A stretch of 64,000 bases of DNA from an uncultured Ruminococcus sp. (GTDB lineage Bacteria; Bacillota; Clostridia; Oscillospirales; CAG-272): the NCBI GenBank assembly GCA_964621165.1, contig CAZULC010000001.1:268281-332280 (forward strand), written 5' to 3'. Numbering within the stretch: position 1 is the stretch's first letter; every line of letters starts with the position of its first letter. The position numbers were made by a program, and so were the translations under genes. The notes under the pieces are model-generated. The model saw nothing but the letters and a program-made list of their open reading frames with translations. It had not been told where the DNA came from and did no database searches. Positions 1,284 to 54,514 of the stretch are shown in pieces.

Positions 1284-2416
1284 CAATGGCAGACGTGAAG
1301 AAAATCCAGACGAAGGAGCCGTTCATTCGTTTGGCGAAGCGTGACGGTGTATCCATGAAGAAGAAAGTCGTGATACGTGCGGCGGCCATATTGTTGGCGT
1401 TAGTGATTGACGCGGCGTTTATTGTGATAGTGACGGGGTTAAATCCCATTGCGGTATACCGTGAGATATTTTTAGCAACCTTCCAGACACCGCTGAGGTT
1501 CATGTGGATGCTGCGTGACATGGCGTCATTATTATGCATAGGAATTGCCTTAGCTCCGGCGTTCAAGATGCGGTTTTGGAACATTGGAGCGGAGGGTCAG
1601 GTACTCATGGGCGGATTTGCGACGGCGGTCTGCATGATGAACTTAGGTCAGAGTTTACCGACGCCATTATTATTTTTAGCGATGATAGTGACGAGCGTTT
1701 TAGCTGGTGCTGTATGGTCATTTTTACCGGCGTTTTTCAAGGCGAACTGGGGTACGAACGAGACTTTATTCACTCTAATGATGAACTACGTAGCGATTCA
1801 GCTTGTAGCGTACTACACGAACATATGGCGCGGACAGGCATCCTCCCTTGGAACCATAAACATGGGTACGAAGGCTGGCTGGTTCCCGAAGTTATTCGGC
1901 TATGATTTTACCTTAAACATAATAATAGTGGCAGTGCTTACGGTAGCGATGTACATATATTTAAAGTACACGAAGCACGGCTACGAGATATCGGTAGTAG
2001 GTGAGAGTGAGAACACGGCGCGGTATGCCGGAATTGACGTAAAGAAAGTCACGATACGGACGATGATCATTTCAGGTGCGGTCTGCGGTTTATGCGGGTT
2101 CATAATAGTTGCGGGCAACAAGCACACGATTGCGACGAACACGGCTGGCGGGAACGGGTTCACTGCTATAATAGTGGCGTGGCTTGCGAAGTTCAACACG
2201 TTTTTCATGGCGCTTATCGCGTTCCTCCTGGTATTTCTTGAGAAAGGCGCGAGTCAGATAGCGTCGGCGTACGGTTTAAACGAGTACATCGCGGACATTA
2301 TCTCAGGTGTGATTTTATTCTGCATACTTGGTTCGGAGTTTTTCATAAACTACAGGATGATTTTCCGTCACACTGAGAAAGCTGAAATTTCTGAGAAAGC
2401 AGGTGAAGCAAAATGA
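1280..2416 (+). CDS. ABC transporter permease (BMP/nucleoside-sugar family, YufP/NupP-like)
   Basis: ATGA start/stop overlap with the ATPase gene (ATG 1280, TGA 1281-1283). The protein is polytopic and hydrophobic with a WNIGAEGQ permease motif. The ORF-track start at 1166 lies inside the upstream gene and is unlikely. Confidence 0.85.
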   Translation: MTMADVKKIQTKEPFIRLAKRDGVSMKKKVVIRAAAILLALVIDAAFIVIVTGLNPIAVYREIFLATFQTPLRFMWMLRDMASLLCIGIALAPAFKMRFWNIGAEGQVLMGGFATAVCMMNLGQSLPTPLLFLAMIVTSVLAGAVWSFLPAFFKANWGTNETLFTLMMNYVAIQLVAYYTNIWRGQASSLGTINMGTKAGWFPKLFGYDFTLNIIIVAVLTVAMYIYLKYTKHGYEISVVGESENTARYAGIDVKKVTIRTMIISGAVCGLCGFIIVAGNKHTIATNTAGGNGFTAIIVAWLAKFNTFFMALIAFLLVFLEKGASQIASAYGLNEYIADIISGVILFCILGSEFFINYRMIFRHTEKAEISEKAGEAK

Positions 2417-3411
2417 TAGAGACAAACATACTTGCGTGGATCAGCCGTGCTGTACAGTTTGGCACGATAATAATGTTCGGTTCTCTTGGCGAGATACTGA
2501 CGGAGAAGTCGGGCAATTTAAACCTCGGTGTACCGGGGATAATGTATCTTGGAGCCTTTGCGGGATTTGCGTCAGCGTACGGTTACGAGAACGCGGCGAA
2601 GTCTCCGTCGGGTGCGGTATGCATAATATTAGCGTTAGTGTCGGCGTTTATAGCGGCGGCCATTGGCGGGTTAATATATTCATTTTTGACGATAACCCTA
2701 CGTGCGAACCAGAATGTGACGGGCCTTGCTTTGACTACCTTTGGCATGGGGGTTGCGAACTTCTTTGGAGCTTTGATGTTACAGGGGGAGGTATACACGG
2801 CGGCGCCCATATCGAACGCGGCGTTCATCAAGAAGATACCATATCTCTCGAACCATCTTGGATTTATAGGCGAGGCTATATTCTCATACGGATTTCTCGC
2901 GTACTTTGCGATAATAACGGCTATAATCCTACACATATTTTTAAGCAAGACGAAGTCAGGTTTAAACCTGCGAGCGGTAGGTGAGAATCCTGCTACAGCT
3001 GATGCGGCTGGGATAAACGTATCGAAGTACAAGTATTTAGCGACTACAATTGGTGCGGGGATCTCAGGAATCGGCGGCGTCTATTATGTTCTGGACTACA
3101 ACAACGGCATATGGGCGACGACGGGTCAGATAGAAGCCTTAGGCTGGTTAGCGGTAGCGCTTGTAATCTTCACGACGTGGCGGCCGTTGAATGCAATCTG
3201 GGGAGCATATCTCTTTGGCATGCTCTACTGGCTCTACAACTTTCTCCCGAAGCTCCTCGGTTTCACGAACGTAGACCGCACGAGCAGTCTCTACCAGATG
3301 ATACCGTACATTGTAACGATTATAGTATTAGTGGCGGTAAGTCTCCGGAGAAAGCGCGAATCCCAGCCCCCGGCGTCGCTTGGGTTAGCGTACTTCCGTG
3401 AGGAGCGGTAG
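2413..3411 (+). CDS. ABC transporter permease (YufQ/NupQ-like)
   Basis: ATGA overlap with the upstream permease (ATG 2413, TGA 2414-2416). Hydrophobic 332-aa protein with an NLGVPGIMYLGAF motif. It is the third gene of the importer operon. Confidence 0.85.
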   Translation: MIETNILAWISRAVQFGTIIMFGSLGEILTEKSGNLNLGVPGIMYLGAFAGFASAYGYENAAKSPSGAVCIILALVSAFIAAAIGGLIYSFLTITLRANQNVTGLALTTFGMGVANFFGALMLQGEVYTAAPISNAAFIKKIPYLSNHLGFIGEAIFSYGFLAYFAIITAIILHIFLSKTKSGLNLRAVGENPATADAAGINVSKYKYLATTIGAGISGIGGVYYVLDYNNGIWATTGQIEALGWLAVALVIFTTWRPLNAIWGAYLFGMLYWLYNFLPKLLGFTNVDRTSSLYQMIPYIVTIIVLVAVSLRRKRESQPPASLGLAYFREER

Positions 3412-3427
3412 GTTTAGGAAGTGGAGC

Positions 3428-3731
3428 GATGGGAGACAAGGGGAACGCGCTTCTTGAAAGAAGCTGTGCAAGAACTTTATTCCTCATTCTCCTTTTGGTT
3501 TAGCTGAGCAGGGAATGCTCACTCCGAACTATTCTGCAGCTGAGTAGGTAGGATACGGTGGTAGTGGGAGCAGTCCTTGAACTGAGGAGTAGTTGAGACG
3601 GCAGTCAGGGACCGCCTGGTCGGTACACTTTTCTCCCCCCTGCCTGCCCTCAAACCCTTCCGATTGCGTAATTTAGCAGTGATAACGTGCAGTCGATAGC
3701 AGTTATATCAGCGCGGTTGTTAGTGCTAAGG
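3428..3731 (+). ncRNA. Family C structured intergenic element, copy a (candidate ncRNA, class unknown)
   Basis: Aligns block by block with 41009-41452 and 54080-54406. Outer stem GGGGAA(3440-3445)/TTCCTC(3480-3485) encloses hairpin GCTTCTT-GAA-AGAAGC. The 3' hairpin is TGATAAC..GTTATATCA. No conserved ORF. Confidence 0.5.
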
Positions 3732-3750
3732 TGTTTGTGCATTTGTGTAC

Positions 3751-3772
3751 CTGCTGCGGGAGCAGATTTTTT
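3751..3772 (+). terminator. Weak intrinsic terminator just after Family C copy a
   Basis: CTGCT-GCGGG-AGCAG hairpin followed by ATTTTTT. Confidence 0.35.
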
Positions 3773-3788
3773 GTCGGCGGTGTCTGAC

Positions 3789-3871
3789 TGCGGCAGCTGA
3801 ACTGTAGAACCGTGAGATTTCTTAAACTTAGGCTGAATAATAGCCGGAGATAGCCCGTGGGGGCTCCCCAC
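3789..3871 (+). repeat. Family A GC-hairpin repeat unit
   Basis: TGCGGCAGCTGAACTG..GGCTGAATAATAGCCGGAGATAGCCCGTGGGGGCTCCCCAC aligns with the units at 61139-61462 and 38097-38777. Confidence 0.7.
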
Positions 3872-3880
3872 TTTTATCTT
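3857..3880 (+). terminator. Intrinsic terminator formed by the Family A terminal hairpin
   Basis: GTGGGG-GCT-CCCCAC followed by TTTTATCTT, directly upstream of the guaA promoter. Confidence 0.55.
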
Positions 3881-3886
3881 ATGGGA

Positions 3887-3915
3887 TTTACAAGAAGGCT
3901 GATTTGTGATATAAT
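3887..3915 (+). promoter_or_regulatory. Sigma-A type promoter of guaA
   Basis: -35 TTTACA (3887-3892), 17-nt spacer, extended -10 TGATATAAT (3907-3915). Confidence 0.6.
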
Positions 3916-3948
3916 TAGAATGATAAAAAATTTAAGGTGGTTTTACAT

Positions 3949-5487
3949 ATGCAGAAGGTTATAATACTTGACTTTGGCGGGCAGTACAAAGAACTGATTG
4001 CCCGGCGGGTTCGGGAGTGCGGCACTGACTCCATTATTATTGACGGCGACATTTCCGCTGAGAAATTAAAAAAAGAGGCTCCCATTGGCGTTATTTTAAC
4101 CGGCGGGCCTAATTCCGTTTATTTATCCGACTCGCCGAAGTGTGACCCGGGAATTTTCGGGTTAGGCATACCGGTTTTAGGCATCTGCTACGGCTGTCAG
4201 CTTATGGCGTACACTCTTGGCGGCCATGTGGACTCCTGTGCGGTCAGCGAATACGGGCGGACGAATGCGGTTGTGGATGTTTCTTCACCATTATTTACGG
4301 GGCTTAATGAGGAGCAGGTGGTTCTCATGTCCCACACGGACTTTGTGGCTTCACTGCCCGATGGTTTTATCGGCATGGGGAAGACGGAATCCTGTCCATA
4401 CGCGGCTTTTGGCGACGTGGAGAGGAAGTTATACGGCGTCCAGTTCCATCCCGAGGTAGAGAACACGGAGAACGGCACAGCTATAATCGCGAACTTTTTG
4501 AAAAATGTCTGCGGTGCCATCGGCGACTACTCCATGGACGATTACCTCAAGAGAACTATTGCGGCAGTCCGTGAGCAGGTAGGGGACAGCCGGGTGCTTC
4601 TCGGTTTATCAGGCGGTGTTGACTCCTCAGTATGTGCGGCATTATTATCCGAGGCGATAGGGGAGAGGCTTGTCTGCATATACATCGACCACGGACTTAT
4701 GCGTGCGCACGAGACCGACGAGATCAAGGCGGCGTTTGCGAATCGGAAGCTGAATTTTGTACCGATAGACGCGTCGGAGAGTTATTTCCGTCGGTTGAAG
4801 GGGGTTGTGGACCCTGAGGAGAAGCGTCACATTATCGGGGACGAGTTTGTGCGGTCCTTTGAGCGTGCGGCGGCGGAGGTAGGTAATCCGGAGTTTTTGG
4901 CACAGGGAACGATATATCCGGACGTAGTGGAGTCAGGCAAGAACAAGAAGTCAGCGGTGATAAAGAGTCACCACAACGTGGGCGGTCTGCCTGAGAAGAT
5001 GAACTTCAAGGGGGTAGTGGAGCCGCTGTCCCACCTATTCAAGGACGAGGTGCGCCGGCTTGGAGTTATGCTCGGACTTCCCACCACACTTGTCAATCGT
5101 CAACCCTTTCCCGGACCGGGCTTGGCAGTGCGTGTAATAGGGGAAGTGACGCGGGAGAAGTGCGACATTCTGCGGCAGGCGGATTTGATTTTCCGAACGG
5201 AGCTTGAGCAGTACCGTGAGAAGTCGGACGACGCGCGTGCGGACCAATACTTTGCGGTTCTAACGGACACGAGGAGCGTAGGAGTGAAGGGGGACTTCCG
5301 GACGTACGGGTACACGGTAGCTTTGCGGGCTGTGCGGACGAGTGACTTTATGACGTGCAGGATTGCGAGATTGCCGTATGAGCTGATAGAGACGGTGGCG
5401 TCGAGGATTGCGAACGAGGTGGACGGGGTCGGCAGGGTCGTGTATGATATCACAGGAAAGCCACCGGCTACTATTGAGTGGGAGTGA
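3949..5487 (+). CDS. guaA: GMP synthase (glutamine-hydrolysing)
   Basis: GATase domain with GICYGCQLM, ATP-PPase motif SGGVDSS, and a C-terminal dimerisation domain ending ATIEWE. ATG 3949 sits 9 nt after AAGGTGG. The GTG at 3937 overlaps that SD. Confidence 0.95.
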   Translation: MQKVIILDFGGQYKELIARRVRECGTDSIIIDGDISAEKLKKEAPIGVILTGGPNSVYLSDSPKCDPGIFGLGIPVLGICYGCQLMAYTLGGHVDSCAVSEYGRTNAVVDVSSPLFTGLNEEQVVLMSHTDFVASLPDGFIGMGKTESCPYAAFGDVERKLYGVQFHPEVENTENGTAIIANFLKNVCGAIGDYSMDDYLKRTIAAVREQVGDSRVLLGLSGGVDSSVCAALLSEAIGERLVCIYIDHGLMRAHETDEIKAAFANRKLNFVPIDASESYFRRLKGVVDPEEKRHIIGDEFVRSFERAAAEVGNPEFLAQGTIYPDVVESGKNKKSAVIKSHHNVGGLPEKMNFKGVVEPLSHLFKDEVRRLGVMLGLPTTLVNRQPFPGPGLAVRVIGEVTREKCDILRQADLIFRTELEQYREKSDDARADQYFAVLTDTRSVGVKGDFRTYGYTVALRAVRTSDFMTCRIARLPYELIETVASRIANEVDGVGRVVYDITGKPPATIEWE

Positions 5488-5584
5488 TTGCACAGAGATA
5501 CTTTCCCGGCTGTAGAGCTGTAAAAGTCGTGTTTTAGTGAAGTCGTGACAACGGATTGACAACAATATTTCATTATTCATAAGT

Positions 5585-5628
5585 AAAGAGCTAACTGATT
5601 TTGTCGTCGGTTAGCTCTTTTGTTTTTT
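5585..5628 (+). terminator. Intrinsic terminator after guaA
   Basis: AAAGAGCTAAC..GTTAGCTCTTT stem (11 bp) followed by TGTTTTTT. Confidence 0.75.
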
Positions 5629-5912
5629 ATTAATATGAATTTTTTTTAATTATCAATTTAATCAGTCATCTTTTTATTTTTTCAATCTAACTATATGCCT
5701 CATCTTTATCCTTTTGCTTAACAGTCTTTCGAGGTCAATGTTTTGATTTTTTTCCTTTACATATTTGGTTAAAATTCCTATGAGAAGTTTGCCTATGCGT
5801 AACATTTCTTGATTGGCTTCGCTTTTCAAGCCATCAGCTTCGCCAGCACCTAATTTTATATTATCTCCTCAATTGTTGTTTGTGTTCTTTTTAACCATCC
5901 ATCAGCATATCG

Positions 5913-6230
5913 CTAAAAATTATAATGAACTAACAATACGCCGTTGTTTACTGGATTCAAGCTCCGGGTAGTGATACCGCCATTTATCGTATTCTTCTTT
6001 TGTGATTTCGCCGTTTTCCAGTTTTTTGCCTGCTCGTTCCATTTGAGGAACATATCGTGCATTGCGGCGCGGGAGGTTGTCAGGTCGGATTTTGGAGTGC
6101 GTACCCCTGTTTCGTACTGTGCGAGGCGGACGTCCGCGCTCTTTTCGGGGAAGCACAAAAGCTGTCCGAGATATTTCTGCGTCATGCCGCGGAGATTGCG
6201 GAAAAAATGGATTCTTTCACCTATTGCCAT
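5913..6230 (-). pseudogene. XRE-family HTH regulator, apparently frameshifted
   Basis: The N-terminal HTH MAIGERIHFFRNLRGMTQKYLGQLL is in ORF 5913..6230. The expected C-terminus GEITKEEYDKWRYHYPE is in a second frame (ORF 5920..6156). The frames switch at the T6 run at 6022-6027. Confidence 0.55.
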
Positions 6231-6516
6231 TTGTTTATACTCCTATTATAATTTAATTATCAGATAAAGGTATACAAATCCGGATGATTTATTCGTTATC
6301 ATTATTTAGCTGCAATGGGATGACGATTTACTCCTTGGGCTTACCACATTTTCCGACGGCTGTAGACTTCGTTGGCTGAATCGGCTGTCCGCTTTGGCCG
6401 GATGTCGCTTGCGGAGATGTCTGTTTCAGTGATGTTATTTTTAGTATACCTGTAAATTGCGGATAATTCAAGGGGATTAGGTGAAACATTTCAGTGAAGC
6501 CGGAGTTTGGGTTATG

Positions 6517-6602
6517 TTGCGGGAGCTTTGGCTCGGTCGTCGTGGGAGCTGTTAAAGTTTCAGCTGTAGAAAAGCTGAGACTGCCTGCGGGGACTTCCCC
6601 GC
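6517..6602 (+). repeat. Family A repeat unit (complete, 86 nt)
   Basis: TGCGGGAGCTTTGGCTCGGTCGTCGTGGGAGC..CTGCCTGCGGGGACTTCCCCGC. It occupies the position where the 5' half of the GNAT gene should be. Confidence 0.7.
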
Positions 6603-6839
6603 TGGGAGTGTGACCCGCCGGAGATGAAGGTGGTGCCGTTTTACCGGCTGATGGGGTTTGTGATTGACAGGCGGTTTCGCAGGCGTGGGATTGGCGGGGT
6701 GGTGCTTGAGGAAGCTGTCGCGAGGGTGTCCCGGGAGTTTGGGGTGAGACCGATTGCACTGGGGTGTCAGGAAGGAAATATTGGGGCGGCGCGGTTTTAT
6801 GAGAGACACGGGTTCCGGCGGGTGGAATGGTGGGGATGA
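6603..6839 (+). pseudogene. GNAT family N-acetyltransferase remnant (C-terminal half only)
   Basis: Acetyl-CoA pocket motif RRFRRRGIGGVVLEEAV and ARFYERHGF in ORF 6624..6839. There is no N-terminal half. The expected tail DEDDVYYLRY continues in another frame (ORF 6754..7005). Confidence 0.6.
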
Positions 6840-6885
6840 GGATGATGTGTATTATTTGAGGTATCCTGCGGGGATGCAGAATAAA

Positions 6886-6976
6886 TCGTGGGAGTTTTTT
6901 ACTACTCAGCTGAAGTTGTGCCGATTTCACCTGTCGGGGTGTCCCGACCCGAGTTCACCTGTCGGGGTGTCCCGGC
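6886..6976 (+). repeat. Family A repeat unit with doubled terminal hairpin
   Basis: TCGTGGGAG..CAGCTGAAG..TTCACCTGTCGGGGTGTCCCGAC followed by a second TTCACCTGTCGGGGTGTCCCGGC. Confidence 0.6.
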
Positions 6977-7071
6977 TCATACAGGACCGCTTTTCTTATT
7001 TTTGAACGAGTGTTTAATGAAGAAGATTTTTTATTATTGCAAGGGGCGGGGTGGATTTTTTGGGGGAGATA

Positions 7072-7080
7072 TGGTATAAT
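7072..7080 (+). promoter_or_regulatory. Extended -10 promoter element upstream of the GH3 gene
   Basis: TGGTATAAT lies 35 nt upstream of ATG 7115. The -35 region is weak (TGGATT). Confidence 0.45.
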
Positions 7081-7114
7081 TCTAGTGGTATATAATAATG
7101 AAGGAGATTTTGGT

Positions 7115-8434
7115 ATGAAGCGCGTATATAGATTGAATCGGTTCGATGTTCTGCTCATTGTGCTTGCGGTGGTGATTTCCGTGGGAACTATTGGGTGGTG
7201 TCTGGTTACGATTGGGAACAGGTCGGAATCCGGCGTTGAATCCGGTGAAAGTGACGCTGTGGCTGATACGGACGAATCCCGTGAGTCTGAACCTGAGCCT
7301 GAATCCGAGTCCGAGACGGTGAACGACAGTTTTTTTGAGACGGACGAATCGTGGGAGACTGAGCCGCCTGAGACTTTGCCCGAGACTGAGGCTGAGTCCG
7401 CTCTTCCTTCCGGCGAGGGGGAGTTATTTTACGATTACTACCAGCAGGCGGAGGAAATTTTAGCTTCCATGACGCTGGAGGAAAAGGTGGGGCAGATGTT
7501 TCTTGCGCGCTTCCCGGGTGACGGGGTCCTTGACGAGATTCGGGAGTACTCCCCCGGCGGGTACATTTTATTTGCGCGGGATTTTGAGAATGAGACTCCG
7601 GAGTCCATCCGTGAGAAGCTGGAGCAGTGTCAGGCGGCGAGCAGTGTCGGCTTGATTCTCGGCGTGGACGAGGAAGGCGGGAGTGTGGTCCGGGTCAGCG
7701 GATTTACGGCGTTCCGGGAGAGCAGGTTCCTCTCGCCACAGCAGATATGGGCAGAAGGACAACTTCCGGCAATTCTCGAGGACTCCACGGAAAAGTCGGA
7801 ACTGCTTCTCGGGCTGGGGCTGAACATGAATCTTGCTCCGGTAGCGGACGTGCCGACGAGTGAAAATTCCTTCATGTATGACCGTTCCTACGGGCGGGGT
7901 GTGGACAAGACTTCGATTTACGTGGCGCGTGTGGTGCAGAGGATGAGGCAGGATGGCATGATTTCGGTGATGAAGCACTTCCCGGGCTACGGCGACAACG
8001 GCGACACCCACAACGGCTCTACGGTTGACGAGCGGGAGTATTCGGTATTTGAGGACGCGGACTTTCTGCCATTTGTCAGCGGAATCGAAGCCGGCGGGCC
8101 GTGCATTTTGGTCAGTCACACTATCGTGAAGTGCATGGACGGGGACAATCCGGCGTCTCTGTCGGCAAAGGTACACGGGATTCTGCGGAACAATCTAGGA
8201 TTTTCGGGGGTGATCATGACGGACGACCTTGGCATGGGTGCGGTGAGCGGATATGACGACGCGGCGGTGAGAGCGGTTCTCGCGGGAAACGACATGATTA
8301 TTACGTCGGATCTGAGCGGGGATGTGAGCGAGGTCATGGCTGCGATTGAACGAGGGGAGATAGAGGAAGAAGTGATTGATACGGCAGTTCGGCGGGTGCT
8401 GGCGATGAAAGTCAGGTACAGTATAATAAAATAG
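7115..8434 (+). CDS. Membrane-anchored glycoside hydrolase family 3 (beta-N-acetylhexosaminidase, NagZ-like)
   Basis: AAGGAG lies 8 nt before ATG 7115. An N-terminal TM helix (VLLIVLAVVISVGTIGW) and an acidic linker precede GH3 motifs KHFPGYG and GVIMTDDLGM. Confidence 0.8.
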   Translation: MKRVYRLNRFDVLLIVLAVVISVGTIGWCLVTIGNRSESGVESGESDAVADTDESRESEPEPESESETVNDSFFETDESWETEPPETLPETEAESALPSGEGELFYDYYQQAEEILASMTLEEKVGQMFLARFPGDGVLDEIREYSPGGYILFARDFENETPESIREKLEQCQAASSVGLILGVDEEGGSVVRVSGFTAFRESRFLSPQQIWAEGQLPAILEDSTEKSELLLGLGLNMNLAPVADVPTSENSFMYDRSYGRGVDKTSIYVARVVQRMRQDGMISVMKHFPGYGDNGDTHNGSTVDEREYSVFEDADFLPFVSGIEAGGPCILVSHTIVKCMDGDNPASLSAKVHGILRNNLGFSGVIMTDDLGMGAVSGYDDAAVRAVLAGNDMIITSDLSGDVSEVMAAIERGEIEEEVIDTAVRRVLAMKVRYSIIK

Positions 8435-8448
8435 GTAGGGATTGTTTA

Positions 8449-8489
8449 AAGTTCGTCCTGCTTTTGGGGAAGCAGGTCGGACTTTTTTA
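8449..8489 (+). terminator. Intrinsic terminator after the GH3 gene
   Basis: Stem GTCCTGCTT..AAGCAGGTCGGAC followed by TTTTTTAT. Confidence 0.6.
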
Positions 8490-8633
8490 TGGGTTTAGTA
8501 AAGCGTTTGCGGGAAAACTAAAGCTGCAGTTTAGCTTTGGTGTTTGTCTGATTGGCGGACATTTTGGCGCGGGTTTGGTATAATTTGAGCATCAATGACG
8601 CGCGGGCTTGAAATTTAATTTTATGATGTTTTT

Positions 8634-8792
8634 ATGATTTGCATTGGTGAAAATATCAGACGTTTGAGGCGGGAGCGGGACATCACGCAGGATGAATTGG
8701 CGGAATTTATGCGGCGGGATGAGTTTGCGGATGTTATGGGTGAGGATGAAGTTATGGCTGCGCTGGCTGAGGTTGAGAAAGCGGCGAAATGA
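8634..8792 (+). CDS. 52-aa ORF with the N-terminal half of an XRE-type HTH (possibly truncated)
   Basis: MICIGENIRRLRRERDITQDELAEFM.., preceded by TGGTATAAT at 8576-8584. It is too short for the ORF track and lacks the recognition helix. Confidence 0.25.
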   Translation: MICIGENIRRLRRERDITQDELAEFMRRDEFADVMGEDEVMAALAEVEKAAK

Positions 8793-8796
8793 ATGG

Positions 8797-8883
8797 GGGT
8801 CGGTAGCACCGACGGGCGGTCTCGGCGCTGCGGCAGTTGAGCAGGGGAGAAGACCCACGACGACGATTCTTTGGCTCCCGCAG
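8797..8883 (-). repeat. Family A repeat unit (reverse orientation)
   Basis: The reverse complement reads CTGCGGGAGCCAAAGAATCGTCGTCGTGGG..CCGCCCGTCGGTGCTACCGACCC. Confidence 0.65.
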
Positions 8884-8892
8884 AATAAAAAT

Positions 8893-8931
8893 AAAGGCTG
8901 GCTTGGGCTTGGAGCTTGGGTCAGCTTTTTT
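8893..8931. terminator. Bidirectional intrinsic terminator (serves the convergent AraC gene)
   Basis: AAAGGCTG..CAGCTTTTTT stem with an A/T-rich tract (AATAAAAATAAA) on one side and a T-tract on the other. Close sequence relatives occur at 15758-15797 and 27728-27757. Confidence 0.55.
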
Positions 8932-9059
8932 GCGGATAAAAATATATGAGGTTTTCTATAGATTACGGTGATATATTTTCTTTACAAATTTACCTTGATA
9001 TGGTACAATATTTTATGTAAAGGTATACAAATTTTGCGGGATGATTAAATGATTCCGGA

Positions 9060-9884
9060 CTACTTTTTCCGGAACGTGCCGGGGGAGCAGCCGAATTCTT
9101 TGCGGAAGGAGTCCGTGAAATAGTTTGTGTTTTTGAATCCGGTCATGTAGCAGATTTCCTTGAAGGTCAGGTCGGTGGACTTTATTAAATCCGCGGCTGT
9201 GGTCAGGCGCACCTTCTTAACGTAGCTGGAAAAGCCGATTCCGGTTGCCGTGGCGAATATGTGGGAGAAGTAGGCTTCCGACAGTCCGGTCAGTGCTGAG
9301 GCTTCCTTTAGGGTGATGTTTTTCGCGTAGTTTTCCTTGGCGTAGATGATGGCCTTCTTCACGGCGGAGTAGCCGCTGACCTGCGACGTTCTCTTCTGCT
9401 TCCGGCGCATAATCTCTATGCACAGGTTTTCCATGAGGTTGCCGAGCTGGCGGGCGTACATGTATTTTTTTTCATTATACACCTTCACGCACCACTGGCA
9501 GTAGGTCCGGAAAAATTCCGCTTCCTCTCCTTCGAAGTACAGCACTATGGGTTCGGTGGAGGCGTAGAAGAATGACGACAGGTTTTCGTCGATGTACTTT
9601 GGGAAAAACTGGAGGCAGTAGTAGTTGACGCTTCCGTTCTCCGGTATGCGGTAGGTATGGTAGTCCGCCGGCGAGGTCAGGCAGAGAAGTCCGGGCTTTA
9701 TCTGGAACTTTGTGCTGTTGATTTCATAGCTCCCTTCCCCGTCGACAAAAAACTCAAGCTCAAAGAACGAGTGGAAGTGGATTCTGTTATTGTAATATGT
9801 AGTGAAGTCAACCGCGCTGTTGTCGGCATAAATCTCGGACGGGTCATGTTCGTTTGTACGGCTGACGGTTTCTCCCGCTGGCAT
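9060..9884 (-). CDS. AraC family transcriptional regulator (cupin sensor + HTH)
   Basis: N-terminal cupin-like region and a C-terminal double HTH (ITLKEASALTGLSEAYFSHIF..ICYMTGFKNTNYFTDSFRKEFG). GGAGGAAG SD precedes the ATG. Confidence 0.9.
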   Translation of the reverse strand: MPAGETVSRTNEHDPSEIYADNSAVDFTTYYNNRIHFHSFFELEFFVDGEGSYEINSTKFQIKPGLLCLTSPADYHTYRIPENGSVNYYCLQFFPKYIDENLSSFFYASTEPIVLYFEGEEAEFFRTYCQWCVKVYNEKKYMYARQLGNLMENLCIEIMRRKQKRTSQVSGYSAVKKAIIYAKENYAKNITLKEASALTGLSEAYFSHIFATATGIGFSSYVKKVRLTTAADLIKSTDLTFKEICYMTGFKNTNYFTDSFRKEFGCSPGTFRKK

Positions 9885-15797: not shown

Positions 15798-15808
15798 GTT
15801 TGGGGATT

Positions 15809-15902
15809 GCGGGAGCTATTGCATATGGTCGTAGGTTGGGAAGTTGTGCAGAGATTGCCTGTCGGGGCTTCCCGACTCGAGATTGCCTGTCGGGGCTTCC
15901 CG
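15809..15902 (+). repeat. Family A repeat unit (compact, doubled hairpin)
   Basis: TGCGGGAGCTATTGCATATGGTCGTAGG..GATTGCCTGTCGGGGCTTCCCGAC followed by a second GATTGCCTGTCGGGGCTTCCCG. Confidence 0.65.
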
Positions 15903-16096
15903 TAAAAGTAAAACCGCCCGGGAGCAATCCGGACGGCTTCGGGTTAGACGGACAAACAGCGTTATAGTTGTTTGTTTTTTTTGTACCGTTAGGTCGACGA
16001 TACGATTGAGTTAGAGAAGTAATGGACGTAGAATAATCTCGAAAACCTATAATCCTCCACATATGTAATAACACATTTAAAAGCTGTTGTCAAGAT

Positions 16097-16358: not shown

Positions 16359-16496
16359 TTCTCCTTTAGCGAGAAGAAAAAGACCCAAAAGAGGAACTCC
16401 TTGGAAGTCTTGGGTATTTCGACTTCTGCGGAAGTCGACAAAGGGACTTTGTCCCCTTGACCTAAGCTTTTGTGGCGACAACGTGAAGTTTTAGGG
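16359..16496 (+). repeat. Family B structured repeat, copy B1 (5'-shortened, lacks hairpin H3)
   Basis: CTCCTTTAGCGAGAAG..TCGACTTCTGCGGAAGTCGA..GGGACTTTGTCCC..GTGAAGTTTTAGGG. Confidence 0.65.
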
Positions 16497-17351
16497 CTAC
16501 GGGATGTCGGGGATTACTGTCGGAACCTCATCAAGCTGCCACGGGTTTTTTACCACGGACTTCAACAGTTTCAATGCCGACGCGTAGTAGTATCCATCAC
16601 AGATTCTCTCATCTAATACAAACGTAAAGTCCATATACTGCTTCTTTTTCACCGAACCTTGTGCGTCCATCTCATACACCCGTCTCTTGGAGCCGAAGGA
16701 GAAAAATATGGGGCAGGTGCCGAAGTCATAGAGGTGGTGGTAGATTGGCGGGATGCCGAGGGAGCCCATTGACGTTATGAAGTACGAGCAGTGGAAGGGG
16801 CTTACCTTTGCGATGAACTTAGGCATGACTCCGAAGTAGTCGAGGGTCTTGAAAAACCACACGGCGAACTTGAACATGAGTCCGGGGAGTAGGGTAAACG
16901 CCCGTGCCGTATTGTCGAAGTCCCCGCCGGGGTTAGCTCTATAGGACGTGATTTCATAATCGAGGGCCTTATACACGTCCGCGGTGGTGGCGGTGGGAGG
17001 GAGTGTGATTTTCACGACTGTATCAGGGGACTGGAGGGACATTTCCTTTTTGATGGTGAGTGAGACTTCCACGTTTTTTCTTGTCCAGATTCGCTGACCC
17101 CGTATGAATCTATTTAGTGCGGGGCGCTGTGAAACTACGCGGATGAAGGCTGCTATCATGACGTGCATGATACTGATATTGGGCATACCGTTCTGTTGTT
17201 TTTCGCGGATATATTTTTCGATTTTATCTATTTCGATTGAGTCGGTGATGAAGTTCTGTGAGCCGGTGCGGTTTACCATGATGAAGGGGATGACGGCGGA
17301 CATTGGCGACACGGATTTGACCCGGCGGAATTCTTTTTCTTTTTTGGACAT
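16497..17351 (-). CDS. Acyltransferase with 2-oxoacid dehydrogenase E2 catalytic-domain fold
   Basis: C-terminal LDERICDGYYYA aligns with the DHRxxDG catalytic motif of E2/CAT-type acyltransferases. ATG 17351 (MSKKEKEF) is preferred to the TTG at 17375. Confidence 0.7.
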   Translation of the reverse strand: MSKKEKEFRRVKSVSPMSAVIPFIMVNRTGSQNFITDSIEIDKIEKYIREKQQNGMPNISIMHVMIAAFIRVVSQRPALNRFIRGQRIWTRKNVEVSLTIKKEMSLQSPDTVVKITLPPTATTADVYKALDYEITSYRANPGGDFDNTARAFTLLPGLMFKFAVWFFKTLDYFGVMPKFIAKVSPFHCSYFITSMGSLGIPPIYHHLYDFGTCPIFFSFGSKRRVYEMDAQGSVKKKQYMDFTFVLDERICDGYYYASALKLLKSVVKNPWQLDEVPTVIPDIP

Positions 17352-20399: not shown

Positions 20400-20620
20400 G
20401 GGTGAAGTGGAGCGGGTGCGGGAATTTTGTTCTTCTTTTTCTCCTTTGGCGAGGAGGAAAAAGAAGCAAAAAGAGGAACTTTTTATTGAGTCTTGGGGTG
20501 TTTCGACTTCTGCGGAAGTCGACAAAGGGACTTTGTCCCCTTGACCCTAACAGACTTTTGAAAAAGTTTGATCAAAACTTGTGGCAACAACGTTTAGTTT
20601 GAAGTTTTAGAGATCCTTCT
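20400..20620 (+). repeat. Family B structured repeat, copy B2
   Basis: H0 CTCCTTTGGCGAGGAG, H1 TCGACTTCTGCGGAAGTCGA, H2 GGGACTTTGTCCC, H3 ACTTTTGAAAAAGT. It ends 30 nt before the cimA ATG. Confidence 0.7.
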
Positions 20621-22269: not shown

Positions 22270-22600
22270 CTGAATTTGGCGTTTTGGACTAATGCCCTTC
22301 TATAAACCGAATAATATTGTGTGGCAGAGTTTAAATTCGGACTATTGTCCCTCTGTTGGCTGTGCGATATTGTGCGGTGGAATTTATTTTTAGGCTATTG
22401 ACCTGTTGTCTCTGCAGTGGGTGAGTTTGAAATTGGACTATTGTCGCTCTATAAGCAGAATGATATTGTGCGGTTGAGCTTAAAATTGGACTAATGTCCC
22501 ATCGGCAAACGTGCTATATTGTGCGGTAGAATTTGATTTTGGACTATTGTTCTGCTGTCTCGGCTATGCGCGAGTTTGAAATTGGCCTAATGCCATACCG
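22270..22600 (+). repeat. Family E tandem array: seven GGACnnnnGTCC-type palindromes in a 149-bp higher-order repeat
   Basis: GGACTA(A/T)TG(T/C)CC-like sites start at 22286, 22339, 22393, 22435, 22488, 22541 and 22584. Spacings are 53, 54, 42, 53, 53 and 43 nt. Each site is preceded by ATATTGTGCGGTnGAATTTGAAATT. Confidence 0.7.
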
Positions 22601-25799: not shown

Positions 25800-26038
25800 T
25801 TATTTTTCTTTTATGGATTGGATGACGGGGAGATGGTGCGGATTGTTCTTTGTTCTTTTCTCCTTTATCGAGGAGCAAAGAACCAAAAGAGGAACTTCTT
25901 GGAAGTATTGGGGTGTTTCGACTTCTGCGGAAGTCGACAATGGGACTTTGTCCACTTGATCCTAACAAGCCTTTGAAAAGGCTTGACCTAAACTTTTGGG
26001 CTGACTACGTTTTGTTGAAATTTTTAGTGATCCTTCTT
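25800..26038 (+). repeat. Family B structured repeat, copy B3 (full length)
   Basis: H0 CTCCTTTATCGAGGAG, H1 TCGACTTCTGCGGAAGTCGA (25918-25937), H2 GGGACTTTGTCCA, H3 AAGCCTTTGAAAAGGCTT. It ends 14 nt before ATG 26052. Confidence 0.7.
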
Positions 26039-37714: not shown

Positions 37715-38096
37715 GGAATACGCTCCTTTTTGGATGATGAAATGGAAATAAATGTTAATTCAAGCGAGAATTATCGGATTATTTGGATGGAAAAATATGA
37801 AGAAATTTCGCGAAAGCGGAAAATTATGCAGAAAAATAACTGAGGTTAATTTTGGTTAATTCAGAAATACTACAACCGCACAACAAAAGGCCCGGGCGGC
37901 TGAACACAGGTCAAAACCGGCGAGCCTCACGTTGGCTGGGTGATGTTGATTTAGAATTGGACTAATGTGCTGTTTGGGCAATGGGTTCGTTGGAAGCGAA
38001 TTTTGTCGAGGAAAATGCTATTTTGATGAGCAGATTACGCTTTTGAATCCTATATAATAAGGAAGGAAATTGCGAATTTTCAGTAAAGTCGTGGTT

Positions 38097-38777
38097 TGCG
38101 GGAGCTTAAGTTTGTCGTCGAAGGTTGGCTTTAAATCAAAACTGAACGAACGATGTGCTTGCCCGTGGGGGCTTCCCCGCAATCGTAGGTTTTCGGGCGG
38201 TTTTGGGGCTGATGAAGTGCCGTGCTTGCCGCTACCGACCCCACTGCGGGAGCTTAAGTTTGTCATCGAGGGTTGGCTTTAAATCAAAACTGAACGAACG
38301 ATGTGCTTGCCCGTGGGGGCTTCCCCGCAATCGTAGGTTTTCGGGCGGTTTTGGCTGATGAAGTGCCGTGCTTGCCTGTCGGTGCTACCGACCCCACTGC
38401 GGGAGCTTTAGTTTGTCATCGAGGGTTGGCTTTAAATCAAAACTGAACGAACGACGTGCTTGCCCGTGGGGGCTTCCCCACAATCGTAGGTTTTCGGGCG
38501 GTTTTGGGACTGATGAAGTGCCGTGCTTGCCGCTACCGAACCCACTGCGGGAGCTTTAGTTTGTCATCGAGGGTTGGCTTTAAATCAAAACTGAACGAAC
38601 GACGTGCTTGCCCGTGGGGGCTTCCCCACAATCGTAGGTTTTCGGGCGGTTTTGGGACTGATGAAGTGCCGTGCTTGCCGCTACCGAACCCACTGCGGGA
38701 GCTTTAGTTTGTCATCGAGGGTTGGCTTTAAATCAAAACTGAACGAACGACGTGCTTGCCCGTGGGGGCTTCCCCAC
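38097..38777 (+). repeat. Tandem array of Family A composite units (4.6 x 148-153 bp)
   Basis: Units start at 38097, 38245, 38398, 38546 and 38694 (TGCGGGAGCTT..). Units are near-identical. The last unit is cut at 38777 and supplies the last 14 codons of the GH2 gene on the other strand. Confidence 0.85.
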
Positions 38778-40961
38778 CTTGGCGGCTTCTGCGGCCTCTT
38801 TTGACTCTATGTACATGTTGTATTCGTTGACTATTGTAGTGCCGCAGGCGCATTTGAAGGTCAGCTTCACTTGGAACACCGTCTTCGGCTTCGTTCCTGC
38901 GGGGAACTTGAACTTTATTACGCCGCCTTTGGCGTTTTTGTTCTCCTCTGCCACAACATGGTGTACGCCAGTGTAATATTCAACTCCGTCAAGCGTAATT
39001 TCGGAGATAATGTCGCCTTCCGGTGCGTGAGGGCCGTCGTTGAGCAGCCATGTCTCGAACTCGAACTCCTCCTCCGGAAACCACGCAAATTTCCTGAACT
39101 TGGCTGAGGGAACAACATCGCGGAGGGAGTCTTTTACCGCAAAATACCCGCCCTTTTTCACGTTGGGGTATGCGATGAGGGAGTTGTTCGCGGCGCACTT
39201 CCACGGCTCGCACCAGCACCAGTTGATTGCCATTGCGCAGAGGGGCTTCTGACGGCGGGCTTCCTCGAAAATTGCCTTATATCCGATGCCTTGGAGCCTG
39301 TTTGACGTCTCGACGATTGACTCAATTGTGGAAATATCACCAAATCTTTCCAGCGTTGGAAGACTCAGCCACGGATTCATGCCGCCCCATGCATAGAACG
39401 CGTGATGTGCCTGCCAAACTCCGCCAGGCTTGGGTGGGAACAGCTCGTCCTCGGGGATAAATGAGCGGAGGTACTCTACACTCGGCGGAGTTGCGGGAAT
39501 TCCAAACTCGGTGTAGGCTGTGGCGCGGGTCCGACCGAAGAGTGCGAACTGGTCCTCACCGGTTTCAAGATCGAGGAAGGTATAGCCGCCGTGCTTCATT
39601 CCGTCGATTGGCGAGGTGGGGTTGAAGGGGACTTCGGGGCAAAGCTCGAGGGTGAGTGCGTTGAGGAGTCGGAGCGCGAGGTGCTGATCCGTCATGCCCG
39701 ACCAGCTATTGAACAGCTCGTTTCCGCCGCACCAGATTGCGATGGACGGATGTGAGCGGAGCTTCAGAATTATTGCGGTTGCCTCCTGCTTGAGAATGGA
39801 TAAATATTCAGGGGAGTCGTAGTAGTTATTGCAGGACAGGGGGAACTCGAACCAGAGCATGATTCCGTATTTATCGCAGAGGCTGTAAAAAATTTCCTTC
39901 TGGCATCCGGTACCGCCCCAGCAGCGGAATACGTTCATGTTGGCTTCATACGCGAACCTGATGAGTTCCTCGTATTCTTTATCTGTCACAATGCCGGGGA
40001 AGATTTCCTGATTGACGTAGTTGGAGCCTTTTGCGAAAACGTTGACTCCGTTGAGTGTAATCTGAGCCGGTGGCCATGCGCGGGACTTAGGGAAGCCTTG
40101 TGGGTCGATGAGTCTGCCGCAGTTTTGGGTGAGCTGGACTCTACGGAAGCCGATTTTCTTATCAACTGAGTTTTCTTCATTATAAACGGTGACTGTATAA
40201 AGGTTGGGTTCGCCGTAGCCTCTACACCACCAGAGCTTGGGATTTTCGACGTACGCGGTGAATTTACCGTCAATGGTTGTTCCTTCGGCAACGACATCTC
40301 CTGCTGTGTCGGTGATTTTGACCTTACAGGGGAGTGTTGAGTCGACGGTTGTAGTGACTTCGGCGTGTGTGAAGTCCGGGGAAAGGGTATAGCGGGATTC
40401 TGTTCTGCCGATATAGTATTGGTTACGTGATTCTACGAATGTGTCGTCCCATATACCGGAGGGGATAGCTCTGGGGTGCCAGTCCCAGTAGTAGGAGACG
40501 GGGGGTTTACAGGACTGGGAGGCTTGGTTACGGTCCATTGGCATACCCTCGAGCATGGGGTGGGGGTGGATTTTGATTTTGAGGTTATCGCCGGGCTTAG
40601 TGTTACGACCGAAGAGTGAGTTTGCGAAGTCGTCGAGGCAGATATCGACCCGTGAGAACATACCCTCGTGGTGGAAGATCTCGCGGTCATTGAGGAGTAC
40701 GGTCCAGATATAGTCGATCCCCTCGGTAGCGAACCAGATTTTCTCGCCGGCCTTACGCTGGAAGTCGAGAGTTGTGGTATAATACCAAGTAAAAGGTTCC
40801 AGCTGCGTCATCTTTTCGTGCTGCATACCGTAGTTTATATCCGAGATGAATTCTGGGTGTGCCTTAATATAGTCATTCTGCACGTTTCCGGGAACCTGAG
40901 CGGGAAACGGCGGGCAGTCGACATCCGGCGAGTAAGCGGTAAAATTTTGGTAAAACTTCAT
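38733..40961 (-). CDS. Glycoside hydrolase family 2 (beta-mannosidase / exo-glucosaminidase-like)
   Basis: GH2 architecture with a sugar-binding N-terminal region, a TIM barrel with FRCWGG and CGGNELFN. AAGGAG SD. The C-terminal GKPPRASTSFVQF is encoded by the antisense of a Family A unit. Confidence 0.85.
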   Translation of the reverse strand: MKFYQNFTAYSPDVDCPPFPAQVPGNVQNDYIKAHPEFISDINYGMQHEKMTQLEPFTWYYTTTLDFQRKAGEKIWFATEGIDYIWTVLLNDREIFHHEGMFSRVDICLDDFANSLFGRNTKPGDNLKIKIHPHPMLEGMPMDRNQASQSCKPPVSYYWDWHPRAIPSGIWDDTFVESRNQYYIGRTESRYTLSPDFTHAEVTTTVDSTLPCKVKITDTAGDVVAEGTTIDGKFTAYVENPKLWWCRGYGEPNLYTVTVYNEENSVDKKIGFRRVQLTQNCGRLIDPQGFPKSRAWPPAQITLNGVNVFAKGSNYVNQEIFPGIVTDKEYEELIRFAYEANMNVFRCWGGTGCQKEIFYSLCDKYGIMLWFEFPLSCNNYYDSPEYLSILKQEATAIILKLRSHPSIAIWCGGNELFNSWSGMTDQHLALRLLNALTLELCPEVPFNPTSPIDGMKHGGYTFLDLETGEDQFALFGRTRATAYTEFGIPATPPSVEYLRSFIPEDELFPPKPGGVWQAHHAFYAWGGMNPWLSLPTLERFGDISTIESIVETSNRLQGIGYKAIFEEARRQKPLCAMAINWCWCEPWKCAANNSLIAYPNVKKGGYFAVKDSLRDVVPSAKFRKFAWFPEEEFEFETWLLNDGPHAPEGDIISEITLDGVEYYTGVHHVVAEENKNAKGGVIKFKFPAGTKPKTVFQVKLTFKCACGTTIVNEYNMYIESKEAAEAAKVGKPPRASTSFVQF

Positions 40962-41008: not shown

Positions 41009-41452
41009 TGAAGGTGAACGAGGGGGACGTGCTTCTTTAAAGAAGCTGTGCAGGAACTTTATTCCTCATTCTGTTTTATGTGAAGTTTAGCAGGACATGT
41101 TCACTCCGAGCTAATCTGTAGTTTAGTAAGGAGGATGCGGAGAAAATATAGAATACCAAGGGATCAGGAGGGATATAATACGGCAGTCAGGAACAGCCTT
41201 ATTGGAGATAGCTTGCTATCTCCGGTACACAGTTCCCGCCCCCTGTCTGCCCACGCCGGATTCAGATTGCGGGATGGGGCAGTGATAACGTGCAGTTTAC
41301 ATCAGTTATATCAGCGCGAGCGTTGGTGCTGATGGTTGAGAAGATCATGAAATGTTGCGATTGCTGGATTAGCAGTGATAACGTTTGGTTCTACAGCAGT
41401 TATATCAGCGCGAGCGTTGGTGTTGAGGGTGGAGAAAATCATGACGGTATAT
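41009..41452 (+). ncRNA. Family C structured intergenic element, copy b (3' module tandemly duplicated)
   Basis: Same block order as copies a and c. Hairpin GGAGATAGC-TT-GCTATCTCC is present. The 3' module GCAGTGATAACG..GTTATATCAGCGCGAGCGTTGGTG occurs twice (41279 and 41372, 93-nt period). Confidence 0.5.
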
Positions 41453-41826
41453 TATCTTGTAATAAAGTAAATCCCGGAGTGACGTTTCAAAACAAGCGTA
41501 GATGAAACCCTGCTCTCGCAAGGACGGCGCCCTCTCCGATGGTTTGTGCTCCCAGCGTCCTAATCACTACGGCGGCGCGGAATGCGTCTCACGGTAATGG
41601 AGGGAGGTCTGCATACCTGCACCGGAAGTCCAGGCTCCTTTTTACTCTTTGTGGGTTTTTACGCTCATCTTTATTTCGTACACCCCAGGACAGGGTTGAT
41701 TATATGATGTTGGTTTTGCGTACTTCTGTTATAGTTCGGTTTAAGTTTGCGTTATCCTTGACTTTTCAATCTTAGAATCAAGTTGTTCTTATGAAATTTA
41801 ATTTTGCTTAAATTGCTTGTGAAGCC

Positions 41827-54079: not shown

Positions 54080-54406
54080 GATGGGAAACGAGGGGAGACG
54101 CGCTTCTTGAAAGAAGCTGTGCAAGAACTTTACTCCTCATTCTTTATCACGTTCAGTTGAGTAGGGGAACGGTCACTTCGTACAATTCTGCAGCTTAGCA
54201 GGGAGGAGTCCGGATAAGGTGGAGCGATCCAGGGGATGAGGACACAGTGGCTGACAGCAGTCAGGGACCGCCTTGTTGGAGATAGATTGCTATCTCCGGT
54301 ACACGTTCCCGACCCCTGCCTGCCCACGCCGGATTCAGATTGCGGGATGAAGCAGTGATAACGTTTTATTTACAGCAGTTATATCAGCGCGAGCGGAGTG
54401 CTTGCC
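54080..54406 (+). ncRNA. Family C structured intergenic element, copy c
   Basis: Outer stem GGGGAG(54092-54097)/CTCCTC(54133-54138) encloses GCTTCTT-GAA-AGAAGC. Hairpin GGAGATAG-ATTG-CTATCTCC is present. The 3' hairpin is TGATAAC..GTTATATCA. Confidence 0.5.
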
Positions 54407-54514
54407 GCGGAGAATATCAGGACGGATTACGATTCTGGAATATGGTTTGCAGTAGTTTCGCGAATCAGGACGGTGCCAGATTCTGCAATCCAGTGCGGAG
54501 TAGTGCAGCGATAC

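Follow-up and report, generated by a model that had tools for sequence, protein, structure and literature searches.

A dispersed intergenic sequence family with covarying hairpins, possibly a REP-, BOX- or bcr-like repeat, between an ABC importer operon and guaA

We analysed the intergenic sequence that follows an ABC importer operon within a stretch of 64,000 nucleotides (the window) and found that it contains one copy, copy a, of a family of ~310-350 nt, Family C, of which the window carries three full copies. With a probability of about one half, copy a is a member of a new modular, hairpin-structured, interspersed intergenic repeat resembling the REP/BIME, BOX and bcr elements. The family was grouped with these elements because its units are dispersed and modular, their hairpins are conserved in structure, the copies are homogenised, gained and lost, lack a promoter or terminator of their own, and occur in both orientations beside unrelated neighbours. 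The membership of copy a in the family, modularity, hairpin covariation, retention at orthologous sites, concerted evolution, and the lack of an orientation bias and of a promoter were observed directly. The repeat has not been described before and has no match in Rfam. As to its expression, copy a is most likely transcribed solely as part of the 3' UTR of the importer operon, and would be neither an RNA gene nor a leader of guaA.

The window gave three full-copy matches with nhmmer (3470-3758, 41052-41350 and 54123-54409); their E-values, 1e-82 to 1e-97, exclude chance similarity. An extra 3' module was found at 41355-41444. By nhmmer and alignment, copy a covers ~3417-3730 on the + strand. 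Copy b (41010..41444, + strand) has a long apical hairpin and a duplicated 3' module, and 49 nt separate its module end from the start codon of a minus-strand GH2 gene; copy c (54083..54440, + strand) also has a long apical hairpin, with 66 nt between its module end and the start codon of a minus-strand GFO/IDH/MocA oxidoreductase gene. A fourth copy, copy d, is located upstream of the ABC ATPase gene on a Logan contig of the same organism (L001). This contig begins inside copy d and ends inside copy a, indicating that Family C breaks metagenome assemblies. The pairwise identities in the window were 67% (a-b), 69% (a-c) and 78% (b-c), which makes copy a the most divergent copy there; the initial annotation was right in this and in placing copy a in Family C. 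Its boundaries needed revision. The annotation let the copy begin 17 nt after the permease stop codon at 3411 and gave 3428-3880 as the range of the copy and its terminators together: the stop codon was confirmed, the conserved sequence sets in at ~3417-3428, and comparison with the ortholog suggests that the element starts 0-9 nt past the stop, while the element proper ends near 3730 and positions 3751-3880 lie outside Family C.

Copy a is built from a series of blocks, all given here on the + strand. The G/A-rich leader of the 5' module (GGAAGTGGAGCGATGGGAGACAAGGGGAACGC, 3417..3448) is the counterpart of the (GGGGAACG)n octamer repeats in other genomes (nhmmer module match at 3417-3482, E=8.6e-13; 41 module instances compared). 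Hairpin H1 (GCTTCTTGAAAGAAGC, 3449..3464), invariant across all Family C copies, is followed by a conserved tail (TGTGCAAGAACTTTATTCCTCATTC, 3465..3489), in which the alignments revealed the GCAAGAAC motif together with a signature that is specific to each genome (ATTCC in the window, AAAAC in the related genome L105). The first ~55 nt, composed of G-rich repeats, the hairpin GCTTCTTGAAAGAAGC and the tail GGCAAGAACTTT, form a separable 5' module. The variable body (3490..3599) contains the TCACTCCG block and the direct repeat AGCTGAG(C/T)AGG twice; sliding-window conservation and region-wise identities showed that 25-70% of its columns are invariant. The central stem-loop (3600..3648) has the arms GGCAG-T-CAGGG (3600-3610) and CCCTG-C-CTGCC (3638-3648), identified by compensatory changes, and carries in copy a the short apical hairpin GACC-GCCT-GGTC (3610-3621). 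The 3' module (GATTGCG...GCAGTGATAAC-N15-GTTATATCAGCGCG...GTGCT, 3662..3727) was recognised from repeat families D7 and D15, the alignments and the L001 sequence.

The blocks vary in number and presence. Copy a has one 3' module, copy b two and copy d none, the 5' module is also found alone, and the apical hairpin may be present or absent, a modularity like that of BOX elements. Copy a indeed lacks the GGAGATAG hairpin and reads GACC-GCCT-GGTC in its place, as noted before, but the difference is a 20-nt indel rather than a swap: in the window genome, copies b, c and d carry the GGAGATAG...CTATCTCC apical hairpin as an insertion of 20 nt that is confined to them, and all four L105 copies possess the short form, the commoner one across genomes. 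In the whole family the apex is hypervariable, being either empty or occupied by one of three unrelated small hairpins. Conservation is block-wise, and the observed runs of invariant columns were matched by 1/5000 shuffles. A minus-strand ORF (MRNKVLAQLLSRS...) was rejected as coding, since it is interrupted in copy b by a stop codon and the copies differ by indels whose lengths are not divisible by three.

Comparison among copies showed that the pairing of H1 is kept through changes of sequence and length (GCTTTT/AAAAGC and GGCTTTTTT/AAAAAAGCC). L109 has the stem GAGCAGC/GCTGCTC in place of the canonical one, which is found in its ortholog L108, and the tail GGCAAGAAC is kept in L109 despite the replacement. 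Thus, as in REP/BIME elements, the pairing of the hairpin and not its sequence is maintained beside a conserved flanking motif. A pairing switch between the 5' arm of H1 and the tail had been suggested by coordinated variants, and was contradicted by this same locus, where the stem is replaced and the tail unchanged. The central stem showed compensatory changes from C-G to A-U (L110 and L107) and from A-U to G-C (a_orth, the L105 ortholog of copy a), and a mismatch repaired to U-A. In a ten-sequence alignment, H1 and the central stem together had both-sided changes in seven pairs, a count reached by 0/500 shuffles, and 82.5% of cells were paired, compared with 38-58% when the partners were slid. 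No consistent helices were found in the rest of the Family C body, and in a candidate long-range helix (TCACTYC/GRAGTRG) the inner three pairs alone hold. The consensus fold energy was -51.4 kcal/mol on the + strand and -54.7 kcal/mol on the - strand, and the single-sequence folding z-scores were -1.3 and -1.8. An assignment of the strand by G.U versus A.C asymmetry was abandoned: the central stem favours the - strand and the candidate long-range pair the + strand.

The gene upstream of copy a (2413..3411, + strand; ORF list) encodes a permease and is the last gene in an ABC importer operon of the Bmp type (nucleoside/CUT2; Pfam BPD_transp_2, E=2.5e-33), and its TAG stop codon is at 3409-3411. 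The spacer of 525 nt between this gene and guaA contains, in order, copy a, a first terminator-like hairpin (T1), a Family A repeat unit (with a second such hairpin, T2) and the guaA promoter. The consensus scan supported the positions of both hairpins and of the promoter in the initial annotation. T1 (CTGCT-GCGGG-AGCAG followed by A and T6, 3751-3772, + strand) is not part of Family C; T2 is the hairpin GTGGGGGCTCCCCAC (3857-3871) followed by TTTT (to 3875), with which the Family A unit (3787..3875, + strand) ends. The promoter (TTTACA-17-TATAAT with an upstream TG, 3887..3915, + strand) matches the consensus at 11/12 positions, and guaA itself (GMP synthase, Pfam GATase and GMP_synt_C; 3949..5487, + strand) has its likely start at ATG 3949 after the ribosome-binding site AAGGTGG. 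Both T1 and T2 have the form of predicted intrinsic terminators, a GC-containing hairpin directly before a T run, with modest energies: T1 folds at -7.0 kcal/mol (z-score -0.8) and T2 at -12.6 kcal/mol, each unremarkable against shuffled sequence.

The two hairpins had been described as the own terminators of copy a, which the comparisons did not support. T1 overlaps and includes CTGCGGGAGC, a 5' motif of Family A. The Family A unit 3787-3871 has T2 as its terminal hairpin, which the annotation had itself recognised as a Family A hairpin; this unit aligns with the Family A units at 43590 and 6536. No counterpart of T1 or T2 was found after the orthologous copy in L105, which is followed by an AT-rich, unalignable spacer with no + strand terminator before guaA, and a terminator scan found none after copies b, c and a_orth. 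Judging from these alignments, T1 and T2 belong to the adjacent Family A repeat. Among the Family A copies in the window, only the T2 copy has a T run after its terminal hairpin. A conserved arrangement of Family C with Family A in L002 was considered and dropped, the tail of L002 failing to align with Family A. The proposal of an independently terminated RNA is therefore not supported, because the terminators are not those of the element and no promoter is conserved on either strand. The statement that copy a is not part of the guaA leader holds, since guaA has a near-consensus promoter that comes after both the element and the two terminator-like hairpins. The third proposal, a 3' UTR element of the importer operon, stands in part: read-through is the simplest route of expression, as copy a directly follows the last stop codon of the operon, and importer transcripts running through it would end at T1 or T2 of the Family A repeat; a dedicated 3' UTR function, however, would not predict the mixture of orientations that the family shows across nine loci (4 sense, 5 antisense).

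We searched for known elements in and around the copies. Rfam 15 gave no match in the whole window at the gathering score and chance-level matches only (E>1) in a permissive search of 3300-4000; there was no match in L105 2000-10100 at E<=1, and a tRNA was the only match in L082, L091, L107, L110 and L002. Copy a and the L082 double unit had no blastn match in the plasmid and phage collections, and a literature string search for the hairpin was negative as well. The consensus scan detected no conserved sigma-70-like promoter upstream of or inside the copies on either strand, so that the family has neither the conserved promoter nor the terminator of an independent sRNA gene. Nor does it keep the constant orientation and upstream position of a leader or riboswitch: besides the mixture of orientations, a promoter lies between element and gene in L110. 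An inverted-repeat search of the three window copies gave no terminal pair, and Family C is thus not a MITE in the strict sense. No transposase partner was noticed in ~1.3 Mb of loci. By inspection, the attC core sites RYYYAAC ... GTTRRRY are absent from the module, and the flanking genes are syntenic housekeeping genes rather than cassettes. Several other identities, judged by eye on a partial resemblance, were rejected because their defining positions did not fit or varied among copies, namely T-box, sigma-54 promoter, ECF promoter, cre, hix/gix, dif, attC and G-quadruplex. A PurBox was dismissed as well, CCGAACTAT in copy a being replaced by CCGAGC, TCGTAC or TCGAGC in other copies, and so was a minus-strand extended -10 (TGATATAAC), which lacks the conserved final T and where the scan reported no promoter.

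The copies were compared with those of a close relative, L105 (NCBI GCA_037193895.1), whose coding DNA is ~80% identical. The L105 genes run in the order AMP-binding, Pribosyltran, Bmp, ABC ATPase, permease, permease, guaA, so that the synteny from Bmp to guaA is shared with the window. The guaA protein of the window is 91% identical to P0001 of L105 and 76% identical to that of the best species representative, with a placement in uncultured Clostridia or Eubacteriales; accordingly placed, the host of Family C would be an uncultured, Oscillospirales-like lineage of Clostridia. In L105, four Family C copies lie within 10 kb, one in each intergenic gap (4/4) of the purine-salvage cluster, which places copies a and d at orthologous sites in both genomes. 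The window and L105 align continuously across the importer genes and the element as far as 3716, and thereafter no similarity was found until guaA. Outside this pair, more distant homologs were located at three sites: one upstream of the oxidoreductase ortholog in L110, with the position and orientation of copy c, one after the OTCase stop codon in L107, and one upstream of guaA in L002. The same gene junctions occur without the element in L115 and L110. Where L110 has the full element, L111 has a module remnant only; the synteny of the two ends at the element edge, which is a rearrangement and not a clean empty site. No direct repeats were seen at copy edges.

Sequence identity does not follow these orthologous positions. 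Family C copies are 66-84% identical, and the orthologs a and a_orth, at 70%, are no closer than paralogs. All window copies carry the signature AACTTTATTCCTCATTCT and all L105 copies AACTTTAAAACTCATTCT (C2: AACTTTTTAACTCATTCT), and paralogs show mosaic near-identity, for example between d_orth and C1, which are 98% identical in two blocks. These three features together argue that Family C undergoes concerted evolution. The copies may be maintained by copy-to-copy exchange, either through gene conversion or through transposition as single-strand DNA guided by the hairpins, in the manner of REP/RAYT or IS200/IS605. A hairpin with an adjacent conserved motif is the recognition target of single-strand HUH/Y1 transposases, and the likeness of H1 and its adjacent motif to the REP/RAYT and IS200/IS605 arrangement makes mobilisation of the HUH/Y1 type a candidate. 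If the elements have any effect in the cell, their stable hairpins might serve as a barrier or a processing site at mRNA 3' ends.

We also examined the 5' module on its own, which recurs in other Clostridia known from metagenomes. A relaxed 5' pattern matched 23 metagenome contigs and 0 viral contigs; the strict pattern found no match in metagenomes, and the 3' module pattern none in viral and genome contigs. With nhmmer, 42 instances of the 5' module were detected across the loci analysed and none in 79 other Clostridia and Chloroflexi guaA loci. The start of H1 lies 26-47 nt past the stop codon of a co-oriented gene in 11/23 contigs, the gap being filled by the G-rich repeats, and in 2 further contigs the ORF extends into the module and stops at a TGA in the H1 loop. 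The preceding genes are unrelated housekeeping genes (SecA, ClpP, LeuA, PBP transpeptidase, SDR, melibiase and others), and their Pfam matches extend to the C-termini. This adjacency to stop codons is tighter than passive tolerance of insertions predicts. The sequence that follows the module depends on the lineage, being a covarying terminator-like hairpin, a different body of ~200 nt, or the next gene. Units are single or form inverted pairs that fill the intergenic gap between tandem genes (L082, L091). A foldback element with long terminal inverted repeats was rejected, as the L082 arms are two copies of a unit found singly elsewhere. A bolder interpretation, to which we give little credence, is that the 5' module (Shine-Dalgarno-like G-rich octamer repeats that begin at the stop codon, a hairpin conserved in structure, and GGCAAGAACUUU as an invariant tail) with the attached Family C bodies is a new post-stop-codon RNA element acting on terminating ribosomes or the mRNA 3' end, Family C being a new class of ~300-nt structured RNA at orthologous loci of uncultured Clostridia. 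If this were true, the module might stall or recycle ribosomes, couple translation across the gap or block exonucleases; should it prove to act on RNA, it would be a new post-transcriptional element.

Part of the evidence is shared between the interpretation as a repeat and that as a functional, structured + strand RNA of ~300-350 nt, which would arise by read-through or processing from the upstream gene at sense loci or from a promoter in the divergent region at antisense loci, and act in trans or on its own mRNA 3' end. Block-wise conservation and hairpin covariation fit either, as does the retention of copies a and d at orthologous sites while the spacer is unalignable. A variable-length apex on a covarying central stem, together with the covarying H1, is common in structured RNAs; the G-rich end is at every locus turned towards either a co-oriented gene upstream or a region of divergent promoters, from which + strand transcription could enter; and a series of C-G, U.G and U-A at one candidate long-range pair is compatible with + strand pairing only. 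The interpretation as a repeat is further weakened by the tight adjacency to stop codons, which exceeds simple insertion tolerance, and by the negative outcome of the search of Family C for a transposase partner, terminal inverted repeats and target-site duplications, which leaves its mobility putative. Against the RNA, however, are the absence of promoter and terminator conservation, with T1 and T2 belonging to Family A and absent in the ortholog; fold energies that fail to separate the strands and z-scores of only -1.3 and -1.8; one-sided changes in the central stem that give A.C on the + strand and G.U on the - strand; and a body mostly devoid of consistent helices. We consider such an RNA unlikely. 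If instead the minus strand were functional, as a long 5' leader or upstream RNA of the GH2, oxidoreductase, Bmp (L105) and guaA (L002) genes, with the C-rich octamer complement as a Rho-loading or anti-Shine-Dalgarno tract, the G.U-compatible changes would be explained, the consensus fold is marginally better on that strand, and 5/9 loci have the required arrangement. This is highly improbable, since in copies a, d, C1 and the L107 copy the minus strand points into the 3' end of the upstream gene and has no gene to lead, the L110 promoter is downstream of the element, and the candidate -10 described above lacks the conserved final T, with no promoter reported there.

Two further explanations do not invoke RNA. 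The elements could act as DNA in cis, as clusters of palindromic protein-binding sites or promoter modulators for the adjacent gene; Neisseria REP2, Correia elements and IHF- or gyrase-binding BIMEs are cis elements of this type. H1 remains a hairpin even where L109 and L108 differ completely in its sequence and length, which fits base pairing and not sequence-specific protein recognition, the L110 neighbour has its own good promoter between element and gene, shared with L111 where the element body is missing, and the neighbouring genes are functionally unrelated. We therefore regard this as quite unlikely, even though a cis function would not depend on orientation, in line with the arrangement of the loci, perfect or near-perfect palindromes are present (GCTTCTTGAAAGAAGC, GGAGATAGC/GCTATCTCC and GTGATAAC...GTTATATC), a start codon follows 49-100 nt downstream of the module end in five loci, and four copies are crowded into one purine-salvage cluster. 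It is very unlikely that the copies are remnants of a mobile element now extinct and are today both functionless and inactive. An identity of 66-84% among copies implies that they are old, no partner transposase was seen, and some copies are truncated or partial (copy d without the 3' module, the L111 remnant); but conservation is non-uniform, compensatory changes occur in two hairpins, all copies of a genome share its signature, and the element can be aligned between genomes where the adjacent spacer cannot.

To our knowledge, small interspersed repeats have been studied well in Proteobacteria, in streptococci and in the Bacillus cereus group, and have hardly been described from uncultured gut and rumen Clostridia. 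Family C supplies ready-made hairpins directly 3' of the stop codons of core genes, can be used as a lineage marker, and offers a tractable case of within-genome repeat homogenisation set against fixed loci; knowing it prevents its mis-annotation as sRNA genes or leaders. Copy a resembles 3'-UTR-derived small RNAs in that it immediately follows a stop codon and precedes a terminator. These share the terminator of their mRNA and are locus-specific, whereas Family C is multi-copy, occurs in both orientations and is followed at this locus by terminators from another repeat.

Among the interspersed repeats that Family C resembles, the REP/BIME elements of Enterobacteria and Pseudomonas (RAYT) share a short conserved hairpin with a conserved adjacent single-strand motif, a location in gene gaps, often just 3' of genes, as single units or inverted pairs, and species-specific types at shared loci; roles in mRNA 3'-end stability have been proposed for them (PMC3184786). 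Family C differs in its unit of 200-350 nt with a structured body (~35 nt in REP), in the (GGGGAACG)n and GACGC, with no GTAG, that precede the hairpin, and in its start with G-rich octamer repeats, the lack of a linked RAYT/Y1 transposase and its Firmicute host. Pneumococcal BOX elements (boxA-boxB(n)-boxC) are likewise modular composites with a variable number of internal or terminal modules, are intergenic and clustered with other repeat families, and are predicted to form stem-loops if transcribed (PMC3049150). They have no sequence similarity to Family C, possess terminal inverted repeats, which it lacks, and target-site duplications, none of which were seen at its edges, and are unlike it in that Family C is retained at orthologous loci between species. 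The bcr repeats of Bacillus cereus (for example bcr5, 310 nt; groups B and C) are similar in their length of ~300 nt, Firmicute host, lack of inverted terminal repeats and predicted stable structure, and some of their groups, which keep their places in the genome, may be RNAs (PMC3184786). The likeness to bcr is by description, with a sequence relation not expected, and bcr5 is associated with a resolvase gene cluster, to which nothing is comparable here. The Correia (Neisseria) and ERIC (Enterobacteria) elements are transcribed intergenic repeats able to fold into long hairpins, and are resembled by the inverted pairs of L082 and L091, whose folding would place a stop codon beside the start codon of the following gene. 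Correia and ERIC are each a single palindromic unit with terminal inverted repeats, whereas the foldbacks found here consist of two separate units in opposite orientation.

At two loci from other genomes or metagenomes, reading frames were found to run into the 5' module of Family C, which consists of G-rich octamer repeats, the hairpin H1 and a conserved tail. At L096 1757-1804, the LeuA ORF continues through the octamer repeats and stops at a TGA in the H1 loop, and another ORF, on the minus strand of L104 (~8150-8200), crosses the same kind of repeats and terminates at the H1-loop TGA, so the repeat provides the stop codon of both ORFs. The C-terminal tails that it encodes in them are ...ENEGNGGNEDAS and ...ENGGNGGNGDAS. 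A subtype of the module was also observed in L083, L087, L088, L092, L094, L095 and L100, all from metagenome JGI994J12354. Here, an additional hairpin (GGCC-TCCGGC-GGCC) precedes H1, and a covarying hairpin, GAGAATGCC...GGCATTCTC, with the variants GGGAATG/CATTCCC and GAGGATG/CATCCTC, lies 3' of the tail. Wherever the upstream gene is visible, it is co-oriented with this subtype, which follows its stop codon; two copies of the subtype lie at contig ends.

In L105, a contig from a close relative, each of the four gaps between genes in one purine-salvage cluster (2097-9656; AMP-binding, Pribosyltran, Bmp, ABC importer and guaA genes) contains a Family C copy, and neither a purine riboswitch nor any other Rfam family was detectable in this region. 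Directly 3' of guaA, L105 11661-21539 carries an integrase, an HTH regulator, two D12 methyltransferases and an AlwI-type restriction enzyme and looks like an integrated element, of which the window has no counterpart at that place.

Other repeats occur in the window. Family A units are ~85-150 nt long, with the layout CTGCGGGAGCT...GTCGTCGAGGG...GCCCG(T/C)GGGG-NNTT-CCCC(G/A)C, and are located at 3787-3871, 6536-6602, 15804-15914, 38093-38810, 43507-43671, 52493-52524 and 61138-61473; some stand in tandem and form arrays, one of 5 x 148 nt and one of 3 x 112 nt. The T run after the terminal GC hairpin is usually absent, and Family A gave no match in Rfam. Family B, a repeat of ~180 nt with …AAAGAGGAACTYCTTGGAAGTCTTGGGGTGTTTCGACTTCTGCGGAAGTCGACAAAGGGACTTTGTCCCCTTGACCC…, has five copies, four of which (20421-20602, 25840-26017, 44844-45119 and 49796-49973) lie just upstream of + strand genes, the exception being 16379-16500, which ends where an ORF on the minus strand has its 3' end. 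Its core AAGGGACTTTGTCCCCTTGACCC is present in a related genome as well (L111, ~4615-4640).

Short repeats were seen at 57682-57785 and 22321-22592, comprising a 30-nt unit (CATTATTGCACAAGTCCCAGTTGTAYGGCT) three times in tandem and a separate set of repeats, each of 83 nt, which occupies the gap preceding the gene at 22749. Between Family C copy b and a DUF1292 gene lie ~380 nt of non-coding sequence (41450-41827) with a terminator-like site on the minus strand (41523-41508).

In L110, which has a more distant homolog of Family C, three units of ~480 nt each stand in tandem at 3620-5090, adjoining a tRNA gene (5136-5209). Each unit combines a promoter-like site (TTGACA...TATACT) and a strong terminator with a small ORF for ~30 hydrophobic aa (MVVTVCTVITTVCTVLLLWLAWLSYRNDMK), and the whole looks like a type I toxin array.
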